From a virus, in the IMG/VR virus record IMGVR_UViG_3300023174_000140, positions 1 to 64,000 of that record: 64,000 nt of DNA; one strand, given 5' to 3'. The notes under the pieces were generated by a model. The model saw only the letters and a program-made list of their open reading frames with translations. It was not told the origin of the DNA and searched no databases. Below are positions 20,931 to 27,592 of this stretch, piece after piece. Within the stretch, counting starts at the first letter, position 1; each line of letters begins with the position of its first letter. The position numbers and the translations under genes were made by a program.

Positions 20931-21788
20931 ATGGCTAGAACAACAAAACCCGCTCAAAGTGTATACGATTTCGATATACATCAAGAGCCACTCCTCACAA
21001 CCGACGGCAAGAGGACAGGATACTTCGGGATGGTACGCCGTGATACCCCCGAACCCATGACACTCGGAGTTTGCACCGAGCAGTATGGTGTGGTGAAGAA
21101 TGCAGACCTTGTGGAAATGGTCGAAGAGTCGCTGGCTCAGAACAGCATGCTCATGAATCACACTTCTAAGAAGTTCGTGGTTCGTGATGGTGCTCGTTTC
21201 TACGCTAGCTATGACTTTACTGACTTCAAGACTGAATTGAAGCCAGTTGGCAAGCGTGCCAAGGGAGACATTCTTGGACTGCGGTTGACTGTGAATAACA
21301 GTTATGATCGCTCCAGCCGTGTCTCGTTAACCCTCGGTTTCCTCCGTTTGGTTTGCACCAACGGAATGAAATCGTTGACCAAGGAGTTCAGCATGACGAA
21401 ACGCCACACGTTGGCCGTCAATCTGGATTTCATTGGTGATGCGTTGGCTAACGCTGTCTCCAGCGTTGACAACTCTGTAGCAATCTTCAATAGGTTGGCG
21501 CAGAAGGCAATTACTGACGAGCAGGGTTTGACCTTGCTCACCAAGTTGGAAGAGAAGGATGTCATCTCTGCTAAGGTGCGTGAAGGCATCGAAGCAGTCT
21601 GGCGGAACCCTTCTTACGAGGAAGATACTGACCGCAACCTGTACAATTTGTACAATGCGTCAACTCAGTTCTTGACTCGCAATGTGGCGGATGAACGCTA
21701 TGAGTATAGCGAGCGCATCAGCACCGACCTGCTCAAGGTCTTCAGCGGAAAAACCCGTGATGAAGAGCTCTTGAAGTTGGTTGCCTAA
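20931..21788 (+). CDS. DUF932-family protein
   Basis: LGVCTEQYGVVKN, NSYDRSS, RLVCTNGM, NLYNLYNASTQFLT. Confidence 0.85.
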   Translation: MARTTKPAQSVYDFDIHQEPLLTTDGKRTGYFGMVRRDTPEPMTLGVCTEQYGVVKNADLVEMVEESLAQNSMLMNHTSKKFVVRDGARFYASYDFTDFKTELKPVGKRAKGDILGLRLTVNNSYDRSSRVSLTLGFLRLVCTNGMKSLTKEFSMTKRHTLAVNLDFIGDALANAVSSVDNSVAIFNRLAQKAITDEQGLTLLTKLEEKDVISAKVREGIEAVWRNPSYEEDTDRNLYNLYNASTQFLTRNVADERYEYSERISTDLLKVFSGKTRDEELLKLVA

Positions 21789-21808
21789 ACTAAAACGAAA
21801 CTTTAACA

Positions 21809-21840
21809 GAGGCGGAGGGCAAAACCCTCCGCTTCTTTTT
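21809..21840 (+). terminator. intrinsic terminator
   Basis: GCGGAGGG-CAAAA-CCCTCCGC followed by TTCTTTTT. Confidence 0.9.
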
Positions 21841-21857
21841 GCTCAAATTAAAAAATG

Positions 21858-21934
21858 TATAAGTCGTTGATTATCAAGCATTTACGTCGGGCGAGCCCCC
21901 GCATGCGTAAATCGTTATCTATCAAAGGTTTACA
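21858..21934. repeat. 77-bp double-palindrome element, copy 2
   Basis: TATAAGTCGTTGATTATCAAGCATTTACG-19bp-CGTAAATCGTTATCTATCAAAGGTTTACA. Confidence 0.9.
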
Positions 21935-21972
21935 ATTCTTGACATTTATATTATTTATGTTATATTTATGAG

Positions 21973-22314
21973 ATGAAAGCCAAACATAAAGTATATTATA
22001 ATTTACATAAGCATTGTCTTTCTATTATGCTTCGTGGTAAAGTATTAGAGCATAGCACAGAATTCTTTTTGAAGGATGTAGAGTTTAGAGTGAGTCAAGC
22101 TGGCAGAAACAGAGTATTAAAAGAACAAAGAAAGAATGTTCACGCTTTTGTGTGTGGCACTCCAGATGATGGATGGCCAATAGATCAAACTGAAAGAAAG
22201 GTTACCTATAATCCTTATAAGTTTAATAGTTTTGTTTATTCTGATACTCTTGAGCCAGTATATAAAGCTAAATGGGTTGGAGTTATTAATCGTGATATTT
22301 TTGTCTTGAATTAA
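21973..22314 (+). CDS. conserved hypothetical phage protein (VYYNLHK...VSQAGRNRVLKEQRKNVHAFV)
   Basis: widespread phage motif; promoter at 21939. Confidence 0.8.
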   Translation: MKAKHKVYYNLHKHCLSIMLRGKVLEHSTEFFLKDVEFRVSQAGRNRVLKEQRKNVHAFVCGTPDDGWPIDQTERKVTYNPYKFNSFVYSDTLEPVYKAKWVGVINRDIFVLN

Positions 22315-22495: not shown

Positions 22496-22895
22496 AGAAT
22501 CTTTTACTAGCAGAGGCTTTAAGTTCACGATGATTGGTCGTGATGGAGATGTTGCAATCTATAAAAAACAATTAGATGAAGTAGACAGCGAAGCCTATAA
22601 CTATGAAGTTATCGCTATCAAACGCCACAATGGTTACGAGATTGCAGGTGTGAAGATGCCTCCTGCTGAAATGTATCCAAGCGATAGTCAATGGGGTGAT
22701 TGGGCTTTCACTTGCTCTACTCGTGAAGATGCAGATAAACGATTTGTTCAACTAAAAGAAAAACTATCAGCTTATGTTGCCACAGCAACTTTGCCTAATG
22801 GTGAGAAGCGTGGTCGTGGCCGTCCTCGGAAGAGTAATGTTCTTCCAGCACCTCCAGCAGAAATTCACTTGACACCAGAACAATTAGCAGTATAA
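22482..22895 (+). CDS. hypothetical protein with C-terminal AT-hook
   Basis: KRGRGRPRK; EMYPSDSQWG.WAFT motif; AAGGAG upstream of TTG. Confidence 0.7.
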   Translation: MKILEESFTSRGFKFTMIGRDGDVAIYKKQLDEVDSEAYNYEVIAIKRHNGYEIAGVKMPPAEMYPSDSQWGDWAFTCSTREDADKRFVQLKEKLSAYVATATLPNGEKRGRGRPRKSNVLPAPPAEIHLTPEQLAV

Positions 22896-22902
22896 TCCGA
22901 TT

Positions 22903-23139
22903 ATGACATACAAATGTGCAGTAAGCGGTGAAGCACTTTCACCAGAGAGAGTTGAGGCTCTGCAAGTCCTCGGCGTTCCAGAGAGTCAATGGACAAAGAA
23001 AGAATATAGTCAGACAAAAAAACTACGAGCTGTATATGCAGGTGATGATGGCAGTAATGACATCGTGATTTGTGATGCAGTAGATGGTGGCTCTATGTTT
23101 GATAATGCAGTAGCATTGGAGGTAGAAAATGAATCTTAA
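22903..23139 (+). CDS. degenerate TraR/DksA-C4-like protein
   Basis: CAVSGEALSPERVEAL resembles CxxCGExIpxxRLxA. Confidence 0.4.
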   Translation: MTYKCAVSGEALSPERVEALQVLGVPESQWTKKEYSQTKKLRAVYAGDDGSNDIVICDAVDGGSMFDNAVALEVENES

Positions 23140-23287: not shown

Positions 23288-23326
23288 CTTCGGAGGCTGA
23301 CATTGAGCTACGGCTTAGTGTTGATT

Positions 23327-23417
23327 GCTAGGGTCGTCTAACTGGTTAAGACCCACGACTTATACTCGTGAAGCTCTAGATTTGAGCGTAATGAAGGTTC
23401 GAATCCTTCCCCTAGTA
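23327..23417 (+). tRNA. tRNA with TAT anticodon (Ile, AUA-reading) and long variable arm
   Basis: GCTAGGG/CCCTAGT, CACGA-CTTATAC-TCGTG, V-arm GCTC/GAGC, GAAGG-TTCGAAT-CCTTC. Confidence 0.85.
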
Positions 23418-23484
23418 TGTAAAGCCTTATCATTCAACGAATTATTTTTATTGACTATTTCTCTAACTCTTGTATATTAAACCT

Positions 23485-23694
23485 ATGACAAACAAACAAT
23501 CAGTTCCATTCTATGTGATGAATGTGTTCGGCCAAGATCGAGCTATCATCCTAAACACCTCAATCCGTATGTGCACAACCAAAGAGACTTGTTCTCTCAA
23601 AGACTTGGAAAATTATGCCAAGGCTTTTGCAGTAGAGTTCTTTCAAGTGCCAAAACCTTCCAGCTTTCCAGCTAAAGTGGGGCAAGTAGTTTAA
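23485..23694 (+). CDS. hypothetical protein overlapping 5' end of tRNA(CAT)
   Basis: leaderless promoter at 23451 gives ATG 23485. Confidence 0.6.
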   Translation: MTNKQSVPFYVMNVFGQDRAIILNTSIRMCTTKETCSLKDLENYAKAFAVEFFQVPKPSSFPAKVGQVV

Positions 23695-23751: not shown

Positions 23752-23878
23752 CTTCTCCTTCTGCAGATTGGATGCTCAATTCCTATAGTAAGTATTGTGA
23801 GCCATCTCAAGAGGACATAGATTGGTATTTTAACAATAAAAGTATTGACAAAAAACAAAAACAGGATAACATTAAACT

Positions 23879-24265
23879 ATGAAACTAATTAAACAAAACC
23901 TCGGTGCTCATTGGGTCATCGGGATTAAAGGCAACAAGGACGAGATTGAGCAGTTCCACAATCGAGTCTATAATTGGGGTGGAACAAACGGAGAGCTTCA
24001 ATGGATGAGTAATGACTTTGCTTATTTTTGGATTACTCTCGAAAAGTTAGAGCGAGTGATGTTTAAGTATGTTATGAATGGTATCACAGATAAACTTGGC
24101 AAAAAGTTTCGTGGTGCTAAAGGTGGATTGAAAGCAGTTGCGATGAATCGTATTAAGAATACTATTGATAATATTCCAAACGAACATTTTGTTCGCACAG
24201 CACAAGTGGAGGATATTTATTCCCTCGGAACAATCTCTGCTGAAAAATTAGATAACGATAGCTAA
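23879..24265 (+). CDS. hypothetical protein, paralogue of 30763..31182
   Basis: YNWGGTNGEL, KGGL, YSLGTISAEK; promoter at 23845. Confidence 0.8.
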   Translation: MKLIKQNLGAHWVIGIKGNKDEIEQFHNRVYNWGGTNGELQWMSNDFAYFWITLEKLERVMFKYVMNGITDKLGKKFRGAKGGLKAVAMNRIKNTIDNIPNEHFVRTAQVEDIYSLGTISAEKLDNDS

Positions 24266-24907: not shown

Positions 24908-24955
24908 ATTTAAGATTTTTCTTGTGAAAAAACAAAGGTATGGTATATTTAACCT

Positions 24956-25222
24956 ATGAACAAAATCAAAAACGCAATCATATACGCAACCTCATATCTG
25001 AAACACTTCGTCCTTTTCCTCTTGGGGCAAAGGTATTTAATCGAATACAAACCCTATGGTAAGGAGCAGGTTTATACCTACATCATCAGCAAACCCTCTT
25101 CTCATACCATCAGCAAGGCAGGGAATAAGCTATTCACTAGCTTCTGCTTTTCTGGTCGTATGGATTCTGGCGTGAAGCAATTCCGCTATGATCGAATCGC
25201 TGGTGGTCTTTCGCCAGTCTAA
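24956..25222 (+). CDS. small WYL-like domain protein
   Basis: IEY...SFCF...VKQFRYDRI resembles WYL RxFRxDRI. Confidence 0.45.
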   Translation: MNKIKNAIIYATSYLKHFVLFLLGQRYLIEYKPYGKEQVYTYIISKPSSHTISKAGNKLFTSFCFSGRMDSGVKQFRYDRIAGGLSPV

Positions 25223-25242
25223 AAACAGAAAGACATTATAGA

Positions 25243-25275
25243 AAGGGCGAGGCCTAAAAAACCTCGCCTTTTTTA
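25243..25275 (+). terminator. intrinsic terminator
   Basis: GGCGAGG/CCTCGCC hairpin followed by T-run. Confidence 0.85.
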
Positions 25276-25309
25276 TTGCAGATAAACAAAAGTATGTTAA
25301 GATAGTTTT

Positions 25310-25523
25310 AGTTCTTCGATATCAGAGAAGGTTGACCGCAAGGTTGCAGTTCTGGAAAGTTTCTAATGGAAACATTAGTTATATATAACGGAACGCCAAT
25401 ACTTCTCTTGGCGAGTCTGACTAACTCCCATAAGAGGATGAACCTGCCAACGCCCAGAGTCAGAGGCGAAAGAGGAGCAGGATATTCCTTTACGAAATCA
25501 TGAGCGTAGAGGGTCGAAGAACT
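25310..25523 (+). ncRNA. candidate structured ncRNA C (214 nt)
   Basis: TTGCAG-N16-TAAGAT predicts TSS at first base of 11-bp closing stem AGTTCTTCGAT/GTCGAAGAACT; GNRA hairpins ACC-GCAA-GGT and CTAATG-GAAA-CATTAG; CGCCAA/TTGGCG; TCTGACT/AGTCAGA; CCTTTACG/CGTAGAGG. Confidence 0.75.
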
Positions 25524-25701
25524 AATTTTTATTACGCCATTTTTCTCTGTGATTGAAAACCCAATCTAACAGAGCTTTTTCAAAACCAATATCGTGTCCT
25601 GCTTTTTCGCTTTCGAGCCATTTGTGCTTTAGGATTTCATTTCGCTCTTCAATAAACTTTTTATATAGAGCAGACGATTCAAGTAAACCAGAAACCTTCA
25701 T
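25522..25701 (-). CDS. DUF4032-like microprotein (59 aa)
   Basis: LYKKFIEERNEILKHKWLESEKAGHDIGFEKALLDW; GTGTAA-N8-ATG upstream; below track cutoff. Confidence 0.75.
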   Translation of the reverse strand: MKVSGLLESSALYKKFIEERNEILKHKWLESEKAGHDIGFEKALLDWVFNHREKWRNKN

Positions 25702-26004: not shown

Positions 26005-26844
26005 ATGAAAGTAAACGAAATTATCACCGAAAAATTCATCGAAGCCCTCAACAAAGGTGTCATCCCTTGGCAGAAGCCTTGGAAAGTTTTTGACCTCTGC
26101 AACGGAGTTTCCAAAAAGAATTATAGGGGCATCAATCAATTTTTGCTACGGATGCTGGCTTCTGATGATTTCTTTTTTACATTCAATCAGATTAAGGAAC
26201 TAGGTGGGAGAATCAAAAAGGGCGCTAAGTCTCATATGGTAGTTTATTACAAACTCCTCAAAACAGAAAGCAACAATGAAACCAAAACTTTCCCCATGAT
26301 GAGATTCTATAAAGTTTTTGGATTGAGTGATATTGAGGGCATGAAGTGGAAACAGCCCGAAGTTAAGAAGCTGGATTTTTCACCAGTAGAAGAAGCAGAA
26401 AAGTTGATTAACAAGTGCGTGATTCAGATTAAACATGGTGGAAGTCGTGCCTGTTATTATCCACAGGAACATAAGATTGATTTGCCCCCAAAAGAAAACT
26501 TCACCAGCGTTGAGGAGTATTATTCTACAGCGTTCCATGAGATTGGTCACGCTATGCACAAGGCTACAAGCGATGAAGTGAAGAATGGATTTGGAACGCA
26601 GAATTATAGCAAAGAAGAATTGACAGCAGAGATTTTTGCAAGCCTTTGCCTTAACTTCTGCGGAATTGATTCGGAAAAATGCTTTAACAATTCTGCGAGC
26701 TATCTTTCAAGCTGGCTTCAAGTTTTGAAAAAAGATATGAACTTTATCATCTCAGCTTCTAGCAAAGCCCAAAAAAGATTTGATGCTTTTATTGATAGAA
26801 AAGAAAGCGAAGAGATTCCAGAAGAAGAAGCTGCAACTGCTTAA
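26005..26844 (+). CDS. ardC: ArdC-like antirestriction protein (ssDNA-binding DUF1738 + zincin domain)
   Basis: PWQKPW, YRGIN, TFNQIKELGGRIKKG, YYSTAFHEIGH, YSKEELTAE, SASYLSSWL. Confidence 0.9.
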   Translation: MKVNEIITEKFIEALNKGVIPWQKPWKVFDLCNGVSKKNYRGINQFLLRMLASDDFFFTFNQIKELGGRIKKGAKSHMVVYYKLLKTESNNETKTFPMMRFYKVFGLSDIEGMKWKQPEVKKLDFSPVEEAEKLINKCVIQIKHGGSRACYYPQEHKIDLPPKENFTSVEEYYSTAFHEIGHAMHKATSDEVKNGFGTQNYSKEELTAEIFASLCLNFCGIDSEKCFNNSASYLSSWLQVLKKDMNFIISASSKAQKRFDAFIDRKESEEIPEEEAATA

Positions 26845-26908
26845 GTCTCAACGATTTACGCAAGCAACCTCCCTGCATATGTAAGTCATTGATAGTCAAT
26901 GAGATTTA
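26832..26908. repeat. 77-bp double-palindrome element, copy 5 (left arm overlaps ardC stop)
   Basis: ..TCAACGATTTACG-CAAGCAACCTCCCTGCATA-TGTAAGTCATTGATAGTCAATGAGATTTA. Confidence 0.85.
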
Positions 26909-26956
26909 ATTGTAAAAAAAACTTGTCCCAAAACAAAAACGTGGTAACCTATTTTT

Positions 26957-27592
26957 ATGTTCAAAAACAAAAAACAAGCCGAAGAGATTGTTGGCACACT
27001 CTCAAAACCCTCAAAGATGCCTGGATATGCTTATTCAACGCCCGCAAAGCGTTGTCTTATCGGGCAGAAAATGCGGAATGTTGTAGGAAGCATTTGTGCT
27101 TTTTGCTATGCTCTTAAAGGGCGTTATGTTTTCCCCAATGTTCAAAAAGCTATGGAAAAGCGTTTTGCTTCTCTTACCAATGATTTGTGGGTGGATGCTA
27201 TGACATACTTAATCGGCAAGGTTAAGAATCCGCATTTCAGGTGGCACGATTCGGGCGATTTGCAAGGTGTGTGGCATATTGAAAAGATTGTGAAGATTGC
27301 AAAGAATCTTCCTCACATTTCTTTTTGGCTTCCAACTCGTGAATATGCTTTCGTTTCAACCTATATTGAACAAGGCGGTGAAGTTCCTAGCAATCTTACT
27401 ATCCGTTTGTCTGCTCTGATGATGGATGGCCCCGCACCCGTAGGAATTGCACAACGCCTTGGCTTATGCGTTAGCGGTGCAAGCAAGTTAGGAAACTTTA
27501 ACTGCCCAAGCTCCAAGCAAGGCAACAAGTGCGGTGATTGTCGCAAGTGTTGGGATAAAAATGAGTTTGCAATCGACTATAAAAAGCATTAA
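26957..27592 (+). CDS. Gp88-like protein (Cys-rich, radical-SAM-like)
   Basis: SKMPG, C...CAFCYA.KG.Y, FRWHDSGD, FWLPTRE, NLTIRLS, CP...CGDCRKCW. Confidence 0.8.
   Translation: MFKNKKQAEEIVGTLSKPSKMPGYAYSTPAKRCLIGQKMRNVVGSICAFCYALKGRYVFPNVQKAMEKRFASLTNDLWVDAMTYLIGKVKNPHFRWHDSGDLQGVWHIEKIVKIAKNLPHISFWLPTREYAFVSTYIEQGGEVPSNLTIRLSALMMDGPAPVGIAQRLGLCVSGASKLGNFNCPSSKQGNKCGDCRKCWDKNEFAIDYKKH

Follow-up and report, generated by a model that had tools for sequence, protein, structure and literature searches.

The question raised by positions 25310–25523 of the window, a stretch of 64,000 nt that is part of a 76.8-kb IMG/VR virus record, is whether this interval encodes an RNA and, if so, of what kind. 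The first-pass annotation had proposed a stand-alone structured RNA, possibly undescribed, and had called it a ribozyme-like or scaffold RNA; all of the sequence elements that it quoted were found where it had placed them. Our analysis makes it near certain that 25310–25523 on the plus strand is a genuine, separately transcribed non-coding RNA gene of an uncultured lake phage, and that the structured RNA family to which it belongs is real. The elements of the transcription unit and of its convergent neighbor are as follows.

25246–25274, plus strand: intrinsic terminator of the upstream 88-aa gene, with the hairpin GGCGAGG/CCTCGCC at 25246–25268 followed by T6 at 25269–25274
25276–25303, plus strand: promoter, with -35 box TTGCAG at 25276–25281, a 16-nt spacer and an extended -10 box TGtTAAGAT (TG at 25295–25296, TAAGAT at 25298–25303)
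25310–25523, plus strand: RNA gene, long form, 214 nt; 263 bits with covariance model R1, fold z = -3.95
25513–25533, plus strand: 3' strand of helix P1, then AATTTTTATT, a terminator-like 3' end with TTTTT at 25526–25530
25522–25701, minus strand: convergent gene for a 59-aa hydrophilic DUF4032-like protein (Pfam PF13224, E = 1.4e-5)

The plus strand of the RNA gene has a minimum free energy of -67.2 kcal/mol (z = -3.95), which none of 200 shuffles equaled, and the minus strand folds more weakly (z = -2.43). The boundaries obtained by homology with covariance models are exactly 25310–25523. The plus strand is taken as the RNA strand because the helices contain many G-U pairs, which the opposite strand would turn into A-C mismatches, and because all 283 neighboring tRNAs lie on the same strand as the RNA. 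The region is GC-rich, as first described, with a G+C content of 43–45% compared with 31–37% in most adjacent segments. It is not strictly free of open reading frames, as had been claimed, since a 45-aa ORF spans 25366–25503, but this frame is disrupted in homologues by 1- and 2-nt indels. The RNA is present as a single copy in the 76.8-kb record, for which CheckV estimates a completeness of 50%.

The order of terminator and promoter, with transcription starting on the first base of an 11-bp closing stem (P1, 25310–25320/25513–25523), was borne out. The predicted +1 at 25310 lies 7 nt past the -10 box (6 nt between), and the same 7-nt spacing leads to the A of the ATG in four neighboring leaderless-type genes (22903, 23485, 23879 and 24956). 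The sigma-70-type promoters in which the -10 box ends 7 nt before the ATG (22869–22905, 23451–23487, 23845–23881 and 24922–24958, plus strand) suggest that the mRNAs made from them are leaderless. Across the RNA family, a sigma-70 match of at least 8 of 12 positions, in which exactly 6 nt separate the first A from the -10 box, occurs in 56 of 85 distinct upstream contexts; 12 of the remaining 29 are shown, and most of these are of the TTGCAC/TGnTAAGAT type with the same gap. The sequence farther upstream varies (a terminator, the 3' end of different tRNAs or other genes) and the +1 is still at the first A. Downstream, the first 12 nt are T-rich in 36 of 57 distinct contexts, and in some the next promoter follows immediately. 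These features show an independent transcription unit driven by a predicted host sigma-70-type promoter, with a 3' flank that is usually T-rich. The terminator at 25246–25274 is terminator-like on the minus strand as well.

In metatranscriptomes, assembled contigs from two lake runs of different studies span only 25293–25564, with the flanking genes uncovered, and a 279-nt contig from a third run lies over 25283–25564. The strand and ends of the RNA are not readable from these contigs, which extend ~40 nt beyond the T-run and come from libraries that possibly contain DNA, and their cover is a weak hint of an abundant discrete RNA. The contig stops (25326 and 25564) and the uncovered parts were considered as RNA ends and rejected, as they coincide with polymorphic sites and are assembly breaks.

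No known family accounts for the RNA. Rfam 15 gave no match for the whole window at the gathering score or for 25100–25700 at E values up to 10, nor did the short forms described below match it, and ARAGORN found 5 tRNAs elsewhere in the window and nothing at 25310–25523. A tRNA, a tmRNA and RNase P RNA were rejected on these grounds, as neither program detects them in this interval, and the initial view that the RNA is assignable neither to tmRNA nor to RNase P holds. A blastn search against 50,697 GenBank phages gave no match, a pattern scan over 185,579 species of bacteria and archaea in GTDB, each represented by one genome, gave no hits, and the literature searched contained no description of an RNA family like this one. 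The family is uncatalogued and absent from Rfam 15, in keeping with the original proposal of a possibly undescribed RNA with its own promoter.

Fetching loci by means of the ArdC-like gene yielded six 214-nt homologues of 89–96% identity and one truncated copy. With a covariance model built from the 214-nt homologues (R1), RNAs of ~130 nt were found at the corresponding genomic position of other phages; they match the model at both ends and lack its positions 16–98. A block shared by both forms, CCAANGCCCAGAGTCNGAGGC, served as the scan pattern for the wider family and retrieved 39 IMG/VR stretches and at least 116 metagenome stretches (118 listed, of which 2 are chance hits), with 101 distinct family sequences among the matches listed. 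The sequencing runs that hold the window's stretch are labeled as freshwater or lake-water metagenomes. The commonest size class is 128–135 nt, and the others are 138 nt, ~152 nt (in which Pd is longer and the P2 arm bears one more hairpin), 145 nt (in which P1 reaches 18 bp), and the 214-nt class of the window's RNA; members outside the last class measure 128–166 nt. Because the collecting pattern fixes the loop of hairpin Pc, the invariance of this loop among the collected members is partly by construction. A relaxed pattern in which the Pc loop was left free retrieved 14 new stretches, all of them chance hits in coding DNA, with a sole hit to the second model R2 at E = 0.065. A covariance-model search of the whole records of 44 terminase-related contigs, most of which are fragments without the region, gave one further member. 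That the 214-nt RNA is the long form of a family with a ~130-nt core had been missed at first pass, as had the self-complementary loop of its last hairpin and the link to tRNA islands.

The core of ~130 nt is, from comparative analysis, a four-way junction formed by P1, P2-Pa, Pb-Pc and Pd. In the window, the corresponding elements and the additional domain of the long form are the following.

25310–25320, plus strand: 5' strand of P1, 11 bp with 25513–25523; 7 of the 10 P1 pairs of the family change on both sides
25321–25323, plus strand: 5' strand of P2, AUC, pairing with GAU at 25437–25439
25324–25408, plus strand: 83-nt domain in the P2 arm, found only in the long form; a 10-bp helix GAGAAG-GUUG/CAAU-A-CUUCUC around two GNRA-capped hairpins
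25413–25427, plus strand: hairpin Pa, GAGU/ACUC, with an invariant GACU in the loop at 25419–25422
25443–25481, plus strand: helix Pb, CCUGC-C/G-a-GCAGG, with strands 25443–25448/25475–25481 and one bulged base, enclosing Pc
25451–25468, plus strand: hairpin Pc, CGCC/GGCG, with the invariant 10-nt loop CAGAGUCAGA; AGUC at 25458–25461 is complementary to GACU of the Pa loop
25487–25512, plus strand: hairpin Pd, CCUUUACG/CGUAGAGG, with a 10-nt loop containing UCAUGA at 25498–25503; 8 of 8 stem pairs change on both sides

The core structure was drawn by hand on nine gap-free 130-nt members (A6), as a first RNAalifold structure of the 3' half was wrong, and R2 was made from the hand model. In the R2 alignment of 100 hits, 81 of them distinct, 96.6% of the cells of the distinct sequences pair, compared with 40–50% when the 3' partners are slid by 1–3 columns, and 26 of 40 pairs show changes on both sides. 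The covariation score is 0.318, compared with 0.05–0.08 for the slid controls and 0.153 for shuffles, and none of 500 shuffles reaches 0.318. The alignment that was counted had been fitted to R2 and so favors it; support for the fold is nonetheless robust, given the variety of pair types and the outcome of the slid controls. The covariation extends to each arm. P1 changes from UUCGAU/GUCGAA to UUUCCGC/GCGGAA, and the short-form equivalent of P2 appears as AAGG/CCUU, AAUG/CAUU, AGUAC/GUACU, AGUGC/GCACU and AAGCG/CGCUU. In Pa, 5 of 5 stem pairs covary, and the loop GACU is present in all readable rows (77–78 of 81). Pb covaries with CCC-C/G-n-GGG of the short forms, where the bulged base is U, C or A, and the closing pair of Pc changes from C-G to U-A; the loop that it closes is written CAGAGUCNGA in the family model. 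Several of the contacts first proposed take a different form in this structure, since AGAGAAG/CTTCTCT, CCTGC/GCAGG and CGCC/GGCG, described as possible pseudoknots, are ordinary nested helices, and the stem CGCCAA/TTGGCG is not kept even in close homologues.

R2 misaligns the 5' side of the long forms, which were therefore analyzed separately. The short forms lack the 83-nt domain, and pairing in it reaches 100% across 19 distinct long forms; changes on both sides are seen at 3 pairs of the apical hairpin, and the domain is otherwise too conserved for much covariation. The two GNRA hairpins reported initially, with GCAA at 25338–25341 and GAAA at 25369–25372, are both part of it, and both tetraloops vary within the GNRA consensus (GCAA/GAAA/GUAA and GAAA/GCAA/GAGA). 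Two other variants depart from the common arrangement. In the 152-nt class (L025:2057–2208, plus strand; L196; L250), an extra hairpin GCUAU-CGGAUAA-AUAGC replaces the conserved strand CAUAAGAG of the P2 internal loop, and Pd is longer. The family member at L138:112–256 (minus strand; the same in L265) is without a promoter of its own and lies between two same-strand genes, and its P1 is lengthened to 18 bp (GGUGAACAAUCCUA-CCCG/CGGG-AUUAGGAUUGUUCACC). This layout suggests that the RNA is excised from an operon transcript, for which the long P1 may be a processing site for a double-strand RNase.

The only non-nested contact is TCTGACT/AGTCAGA, which had been described as a stem. The pairing is kept, in the form of a loop-loop contact and not a stem, and just its GACU/AGUC portion is universal. 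We infer that GACU of the Pa loop and AGUC of the Pc loop kiss and thereby pack two neighboring arms side by side. GACU/AGUC is without covariation support because it never varies, and a covariation test is impossible because the relaxed scan gave no member with another Pc loop; the contact could equally be intermolecular, or not formed.

The loop of Pd carries a self-complementary hexamer in 101 of 101 distinct sequences among the matches listed (UCUAGA in 77, UCAUGA in 11, GUCGAC in 8, UCCGGA and GUGCAC in 2 each, and UCUAGG, pairable with itself by way of G-U, in 1). The palindrome is not in register with the stem, and the hexamer of the window, UCAUGA, has a predicted unpaired probability of at least 0.98. 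Each switch between hexamers replaces both central bases (UA/AU/CG and CG/GC). All 4 central dinucleotides that are self-complementary occur, and the 12 others do not. Two switches separate otherwise near-identical RNAs (L002 compared with L015, and L152 compared with L211); in the long form the change is ...ACGAAUCAUGAGCGU to ...ACGAAUCUAGAGCGU, and in the 138-nt class it is GUCGAC to GUGCAC. Since two bases that are adjacent in a loop cannot form a pair within one chain, covariation from palindrome to palindrome points to pairing between two molecules, and the same reasoning, backed by cryo-EM, was applied by Kretsch et al. to loop L9.3 of OLE and loop L21a of GOLLD (PMC12286853). UCUAGA is constant in three quarters of the members, and the hexamer covariation rests on ~4 switches. 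On this evidence the Pd loops of two copies probably pair, giving a kissing-loop homodimer. Pairing of the Pd hexamer with the UCUAGA in the variable arm of tRNA-Ile(UAU) was rejected, as the arm stays CUCUAGAU whether the RNA hexamer is UCUAGA or UCAUGA. In the whole window TCATGA occurs 6 times, one of them being the RNA loop, compared with ~23 expected from shuffles, in which the counting of palindromes is uncertain; this depletion may reflect avoidance of a restriction site.

The carriers of the family are large uncultured freshwater phages, in which the RNA gene lies mostly within or beside the tRNA islands. Of 128 distinct contexts, 68 have a tRNA gene at a distance of no more than 1 kb. 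The stop codon of the convergent 59-aa gene overlaps the last 2 nt of the RNA. A DUF4032-like gene is found downstream in 117 of 178 loci (72 distinct sequences), with a product of 58–67 aa that carries the motif EILKHKWxESEKAGxDxGFE, and in ~85 of the 117 loci its stop codon ends at the 3' end of the RNA. The RNA also occurs without an adjoining gene of this kind, inside tRNA islands and between other genes, and the 59-aa gene is best described as a neighbor and at most a candidate partner. ESM Atlas look-alikes of the 59-aa protein come from viruses and bacteria; the few members with a record belong most often to the phylum Verrucomicrobiota, which is a faint hint of a Verrucomicrobiota host. 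The host is not readable from relatives because the large terminase of the phage (PHROG 2 type) shares no more than 27% identity with the terminase of any phage in culture.

Other features of the neighborhood were recorded alongside. In the tRNA-Ile(UAU) gene (23326–23418, plus strand, 93 nt) the variable arm is long and forms a hairpin, GCUC-UAGAUUU-GAGC, an unusual feature in a tRNA-Ile. Dozens of related phages retain this arm, and its stem covaries (GCUC/GAGC compared with GCCC/GGGC). Two ORF-free stretches on the plus strand, 17859–18050 and 18532–18752, fold with z = -2.7 and -3.4 relative to shuffles; neither has an Rfam match at the gathering score, and the models of the RNA family do not match them. 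Early-gene neighbors on the plus strand (20931–22314 and 26005–27592) encode DUF932, mycobacteriophage L5 gp82-like, ArdC-N plus zincin metallopeptidase (anti-restriction type) and GP88-like proteins. With respect to the identity of the RNA, a retron msr-msd RNA was rejected, as there is no reverse transcriptase domain nearby and the neighbors are ArdC-like, GP88-like and small proteins. The antisense RNA of a type I toxin-antitoxin pair was rejected on account of the convergent 59-aa product, which is hydrophilic and DUF4032-like, and a riboswitch or cis-regulatory leader because the RNA is followed by a T-run and then a convergent gene, and the downstream context varies.

Taken together, the RNA would be a trans-acting, highly structured molecule made early from a host-type promoter. 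Its Pd loop would pair with the same loop of a second molecule, so that the active species would be a symmetric homodimer or a larger assembly. The working surface could be formed by the invariant Pc loop and the junction (UGAAR-CCCC-AAY-GCC-CAGAGUCNGA-GGC and GNGGG-WAUAU), and its target in the early phase of infection might be a conserved partner from the host or the phage, perhaps a component of the tRNA or translation machinery; both of these latter steps are speculative, and any definite role, for instance in the binding of a tRNA or of some other translation component, is put forward with much less confidence than the pairing of the Pd loops. It is rather unlikely that the RNA is a miniature counterpart of the GOLLD and ROOL nanocages, in which the two-fold Pd contact and an intermolecular GACU/AGUC contact would close an RNA-only homo-oligomer that captures a tRNA or translation component in early infection.

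The same conserved elements could instead serve a protein. A monomeric RNA, acting as a decoy or as the subunit of an RNP, might bind a protein through its Pc loop and junction, with the Pd hexamer as a symmetric site for a dimeric protein and the convergent 59-aa DUF4032-like product as the candidate partner. A strictly invariant 10-nt loop with its flanks is indeed more typical of a binding site than of a structural contact, and the small conserved gene abuts the 3' end of the RNA in most loci (the 117 of 178 given above). A sequence-specific protein, however, would not tolerate five different hexamers of which only the self-complementarity is kept, the RNA is also found without the small gene alongside, and the 59-aa protein matches no known RNA-binding family, which leaves this explanation unlikely. 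The convergent layout, with a stop codon that overlaps the RNA end and an arrangement retained in most loci, would also fit a cis-antisense regulator, which pairs with the 3' part of a minus-strand transcript of the 37-aa and 59-aa genes. Readthrough of the RNA gene would take this transcript as far as the terminator-like hairpin at 25268–25246, a minus-strand site that does lie beyond the RNA gene. Such a regulator has no need of a conserved fold, yet 26 of 40 pairs covary and the loops are invariant; the RNA is present in contexts without that gene, and the hydrophilic 59-aa protein is unlike a type I toxin. We regard regulation in cis as quite improbable.

Catalysis, the other half of the initial suggestion of a ribozyme-like or scaffold RNA, is very unlikely as well. 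A ribozyme, self-cleaving or acting in trans (for example, on phage tRNA precursors), would have its active site in the invariant junction and Pc loop, and a compact multi-helix junction with invariant unpaired bases, a tertiary loop-loop contact and a position among tRNA genes are compatible with one. What we take to be a superficial likeness of CAGAGUC and GGUAUAUAU to loop sequences of the hairpin ribozyme was also counted in its favor, and identification with the hairpin ribozyme on that basis was rejected, as there is no covariance model match and no cleavage-site strand of the N-GUC type. No Rfam ribozyme or RNase P model matches at E values up to 10, and among the self-cleaving classes none of hairpin, hammerhead, twister, twister-sister, pistol, hatchet, HDV-like or glmS is listed. 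The metatranscriptome contigs are continuous across the RNA (25283–25564), and typical self-cleaving RNAs differ from this one, which is single copy with its own promoter. Nothing points to catalysis, and the scaffold-type reading is the part of the suggestion that stands. Palindromes and a position next to tRNA genes are also typical of integration sites, and the conserved stretch might act as DNA, as a recombination or protein-docking site beside tRNA genes. This is extremely improbable, as the covarying G-U pairs make sense only in plus-strand RNA, the promoter is set for the +1 (the fixed 6-nt gap in 56 of 85 distinct upstream contexts), and the stretch appears in RNA libraries without its flanks, as assembled contigs. 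The preferred explanation is the trans-acting structured RNA that pairs with itself through Pd.

Among small phage RNAs, the family resembles the phi29 pRNA (RF00044) in being small (120–174 nt for pRNA) with its own promoter, a multi-way junction, a helix in which the 5' end pairs with the 3' end, and loops whose complementarity serves intermolecular contacts. It differs in that there is no covariance model match, and the pRNA loops are hetero-complementary and form a ring on the portal. In contrast to the phi29 packaging system, the phage of the window has an ordinary large terminase, and the RNA is located in the early/tRNA region. The stable RNAs species 1 and 2 of T4 are small RNAs of no known function that are encoded among phage tRNA genes; we know of no self-complementary loop in them, and they are likened here by description and not by sequence. 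The Pd loop itself resembles the dimerization initiation site (DIS) hairpin of HIV-1, which has an apical loop of 9–10 nt with a six-base palindrome between unpaired purines and occurs in variants such as GCGCGC and GUGCAC. In both, the palindrome is in an apical loop, of 10 nt in Pd, and its central bases vary, whereas the HIV-1 element belongs to the leader of a retroviral genome and serves genome packaging and Pd belongs to a small stand-alone phage RNA. OLE likewise forms a homodimer through a palindromic kissing loop (bridge B3, loop L9.3) in which the central bases covary and stay palindromic (PMC12286853). It is, however, a ~600-nt RNA of Bacillota, not of phages, that is membrane-associated with Oap proteins, and there is no homology to our family.

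The closest analogues, though not relatives, are GOLLD and ROOL. Like the family described here, they are encoded by phages or prophages, often beside tRNA islands, and neither a protein partner nor a function is known for them; lake metagenomes were the source in which GOLLD was discovered (PMC12286853, PMC2864571). Symmetric kissing loops hold the homo-oligomers of both together, and the signature of such a bridge is palindrome-to-palindrome covariation (PMC12286853). There is no homology of sequence or structure, and cmscan lists neither family at E values up to 10. GOLLD and ROOL measure ~600 to more than 800 nt and have dozens of helices, whereas the RNAs described here, at 130–214 nt, are three to six times smaller and have a single four-way junction. 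In contrast to the oligomers of GOLLD, ROOL and OLE, the oligomer proposed here is suggested by a hexamer kept self-complementary through five variants, and no cage is implied. Before the 2025 structures of GOLLD, ROOL and OLE, all of them large RNAs, natural homo-oligomeric RNAs had been considered rare. If the Pd pairing is correct, a phage tRNA-island RNA of 130–214 nt shares the symmetric-kissing signature and is small enough for mutational, biophysical and structural work, with the natural short, medium and long forms marking its dispensable parts. The family adds a well-supported class to the structured phage RNAs without an assigned function; considered alongside GOLLD and ROOL, it suggests a recurrence of self-associating RNAs in phage tRNA islands.
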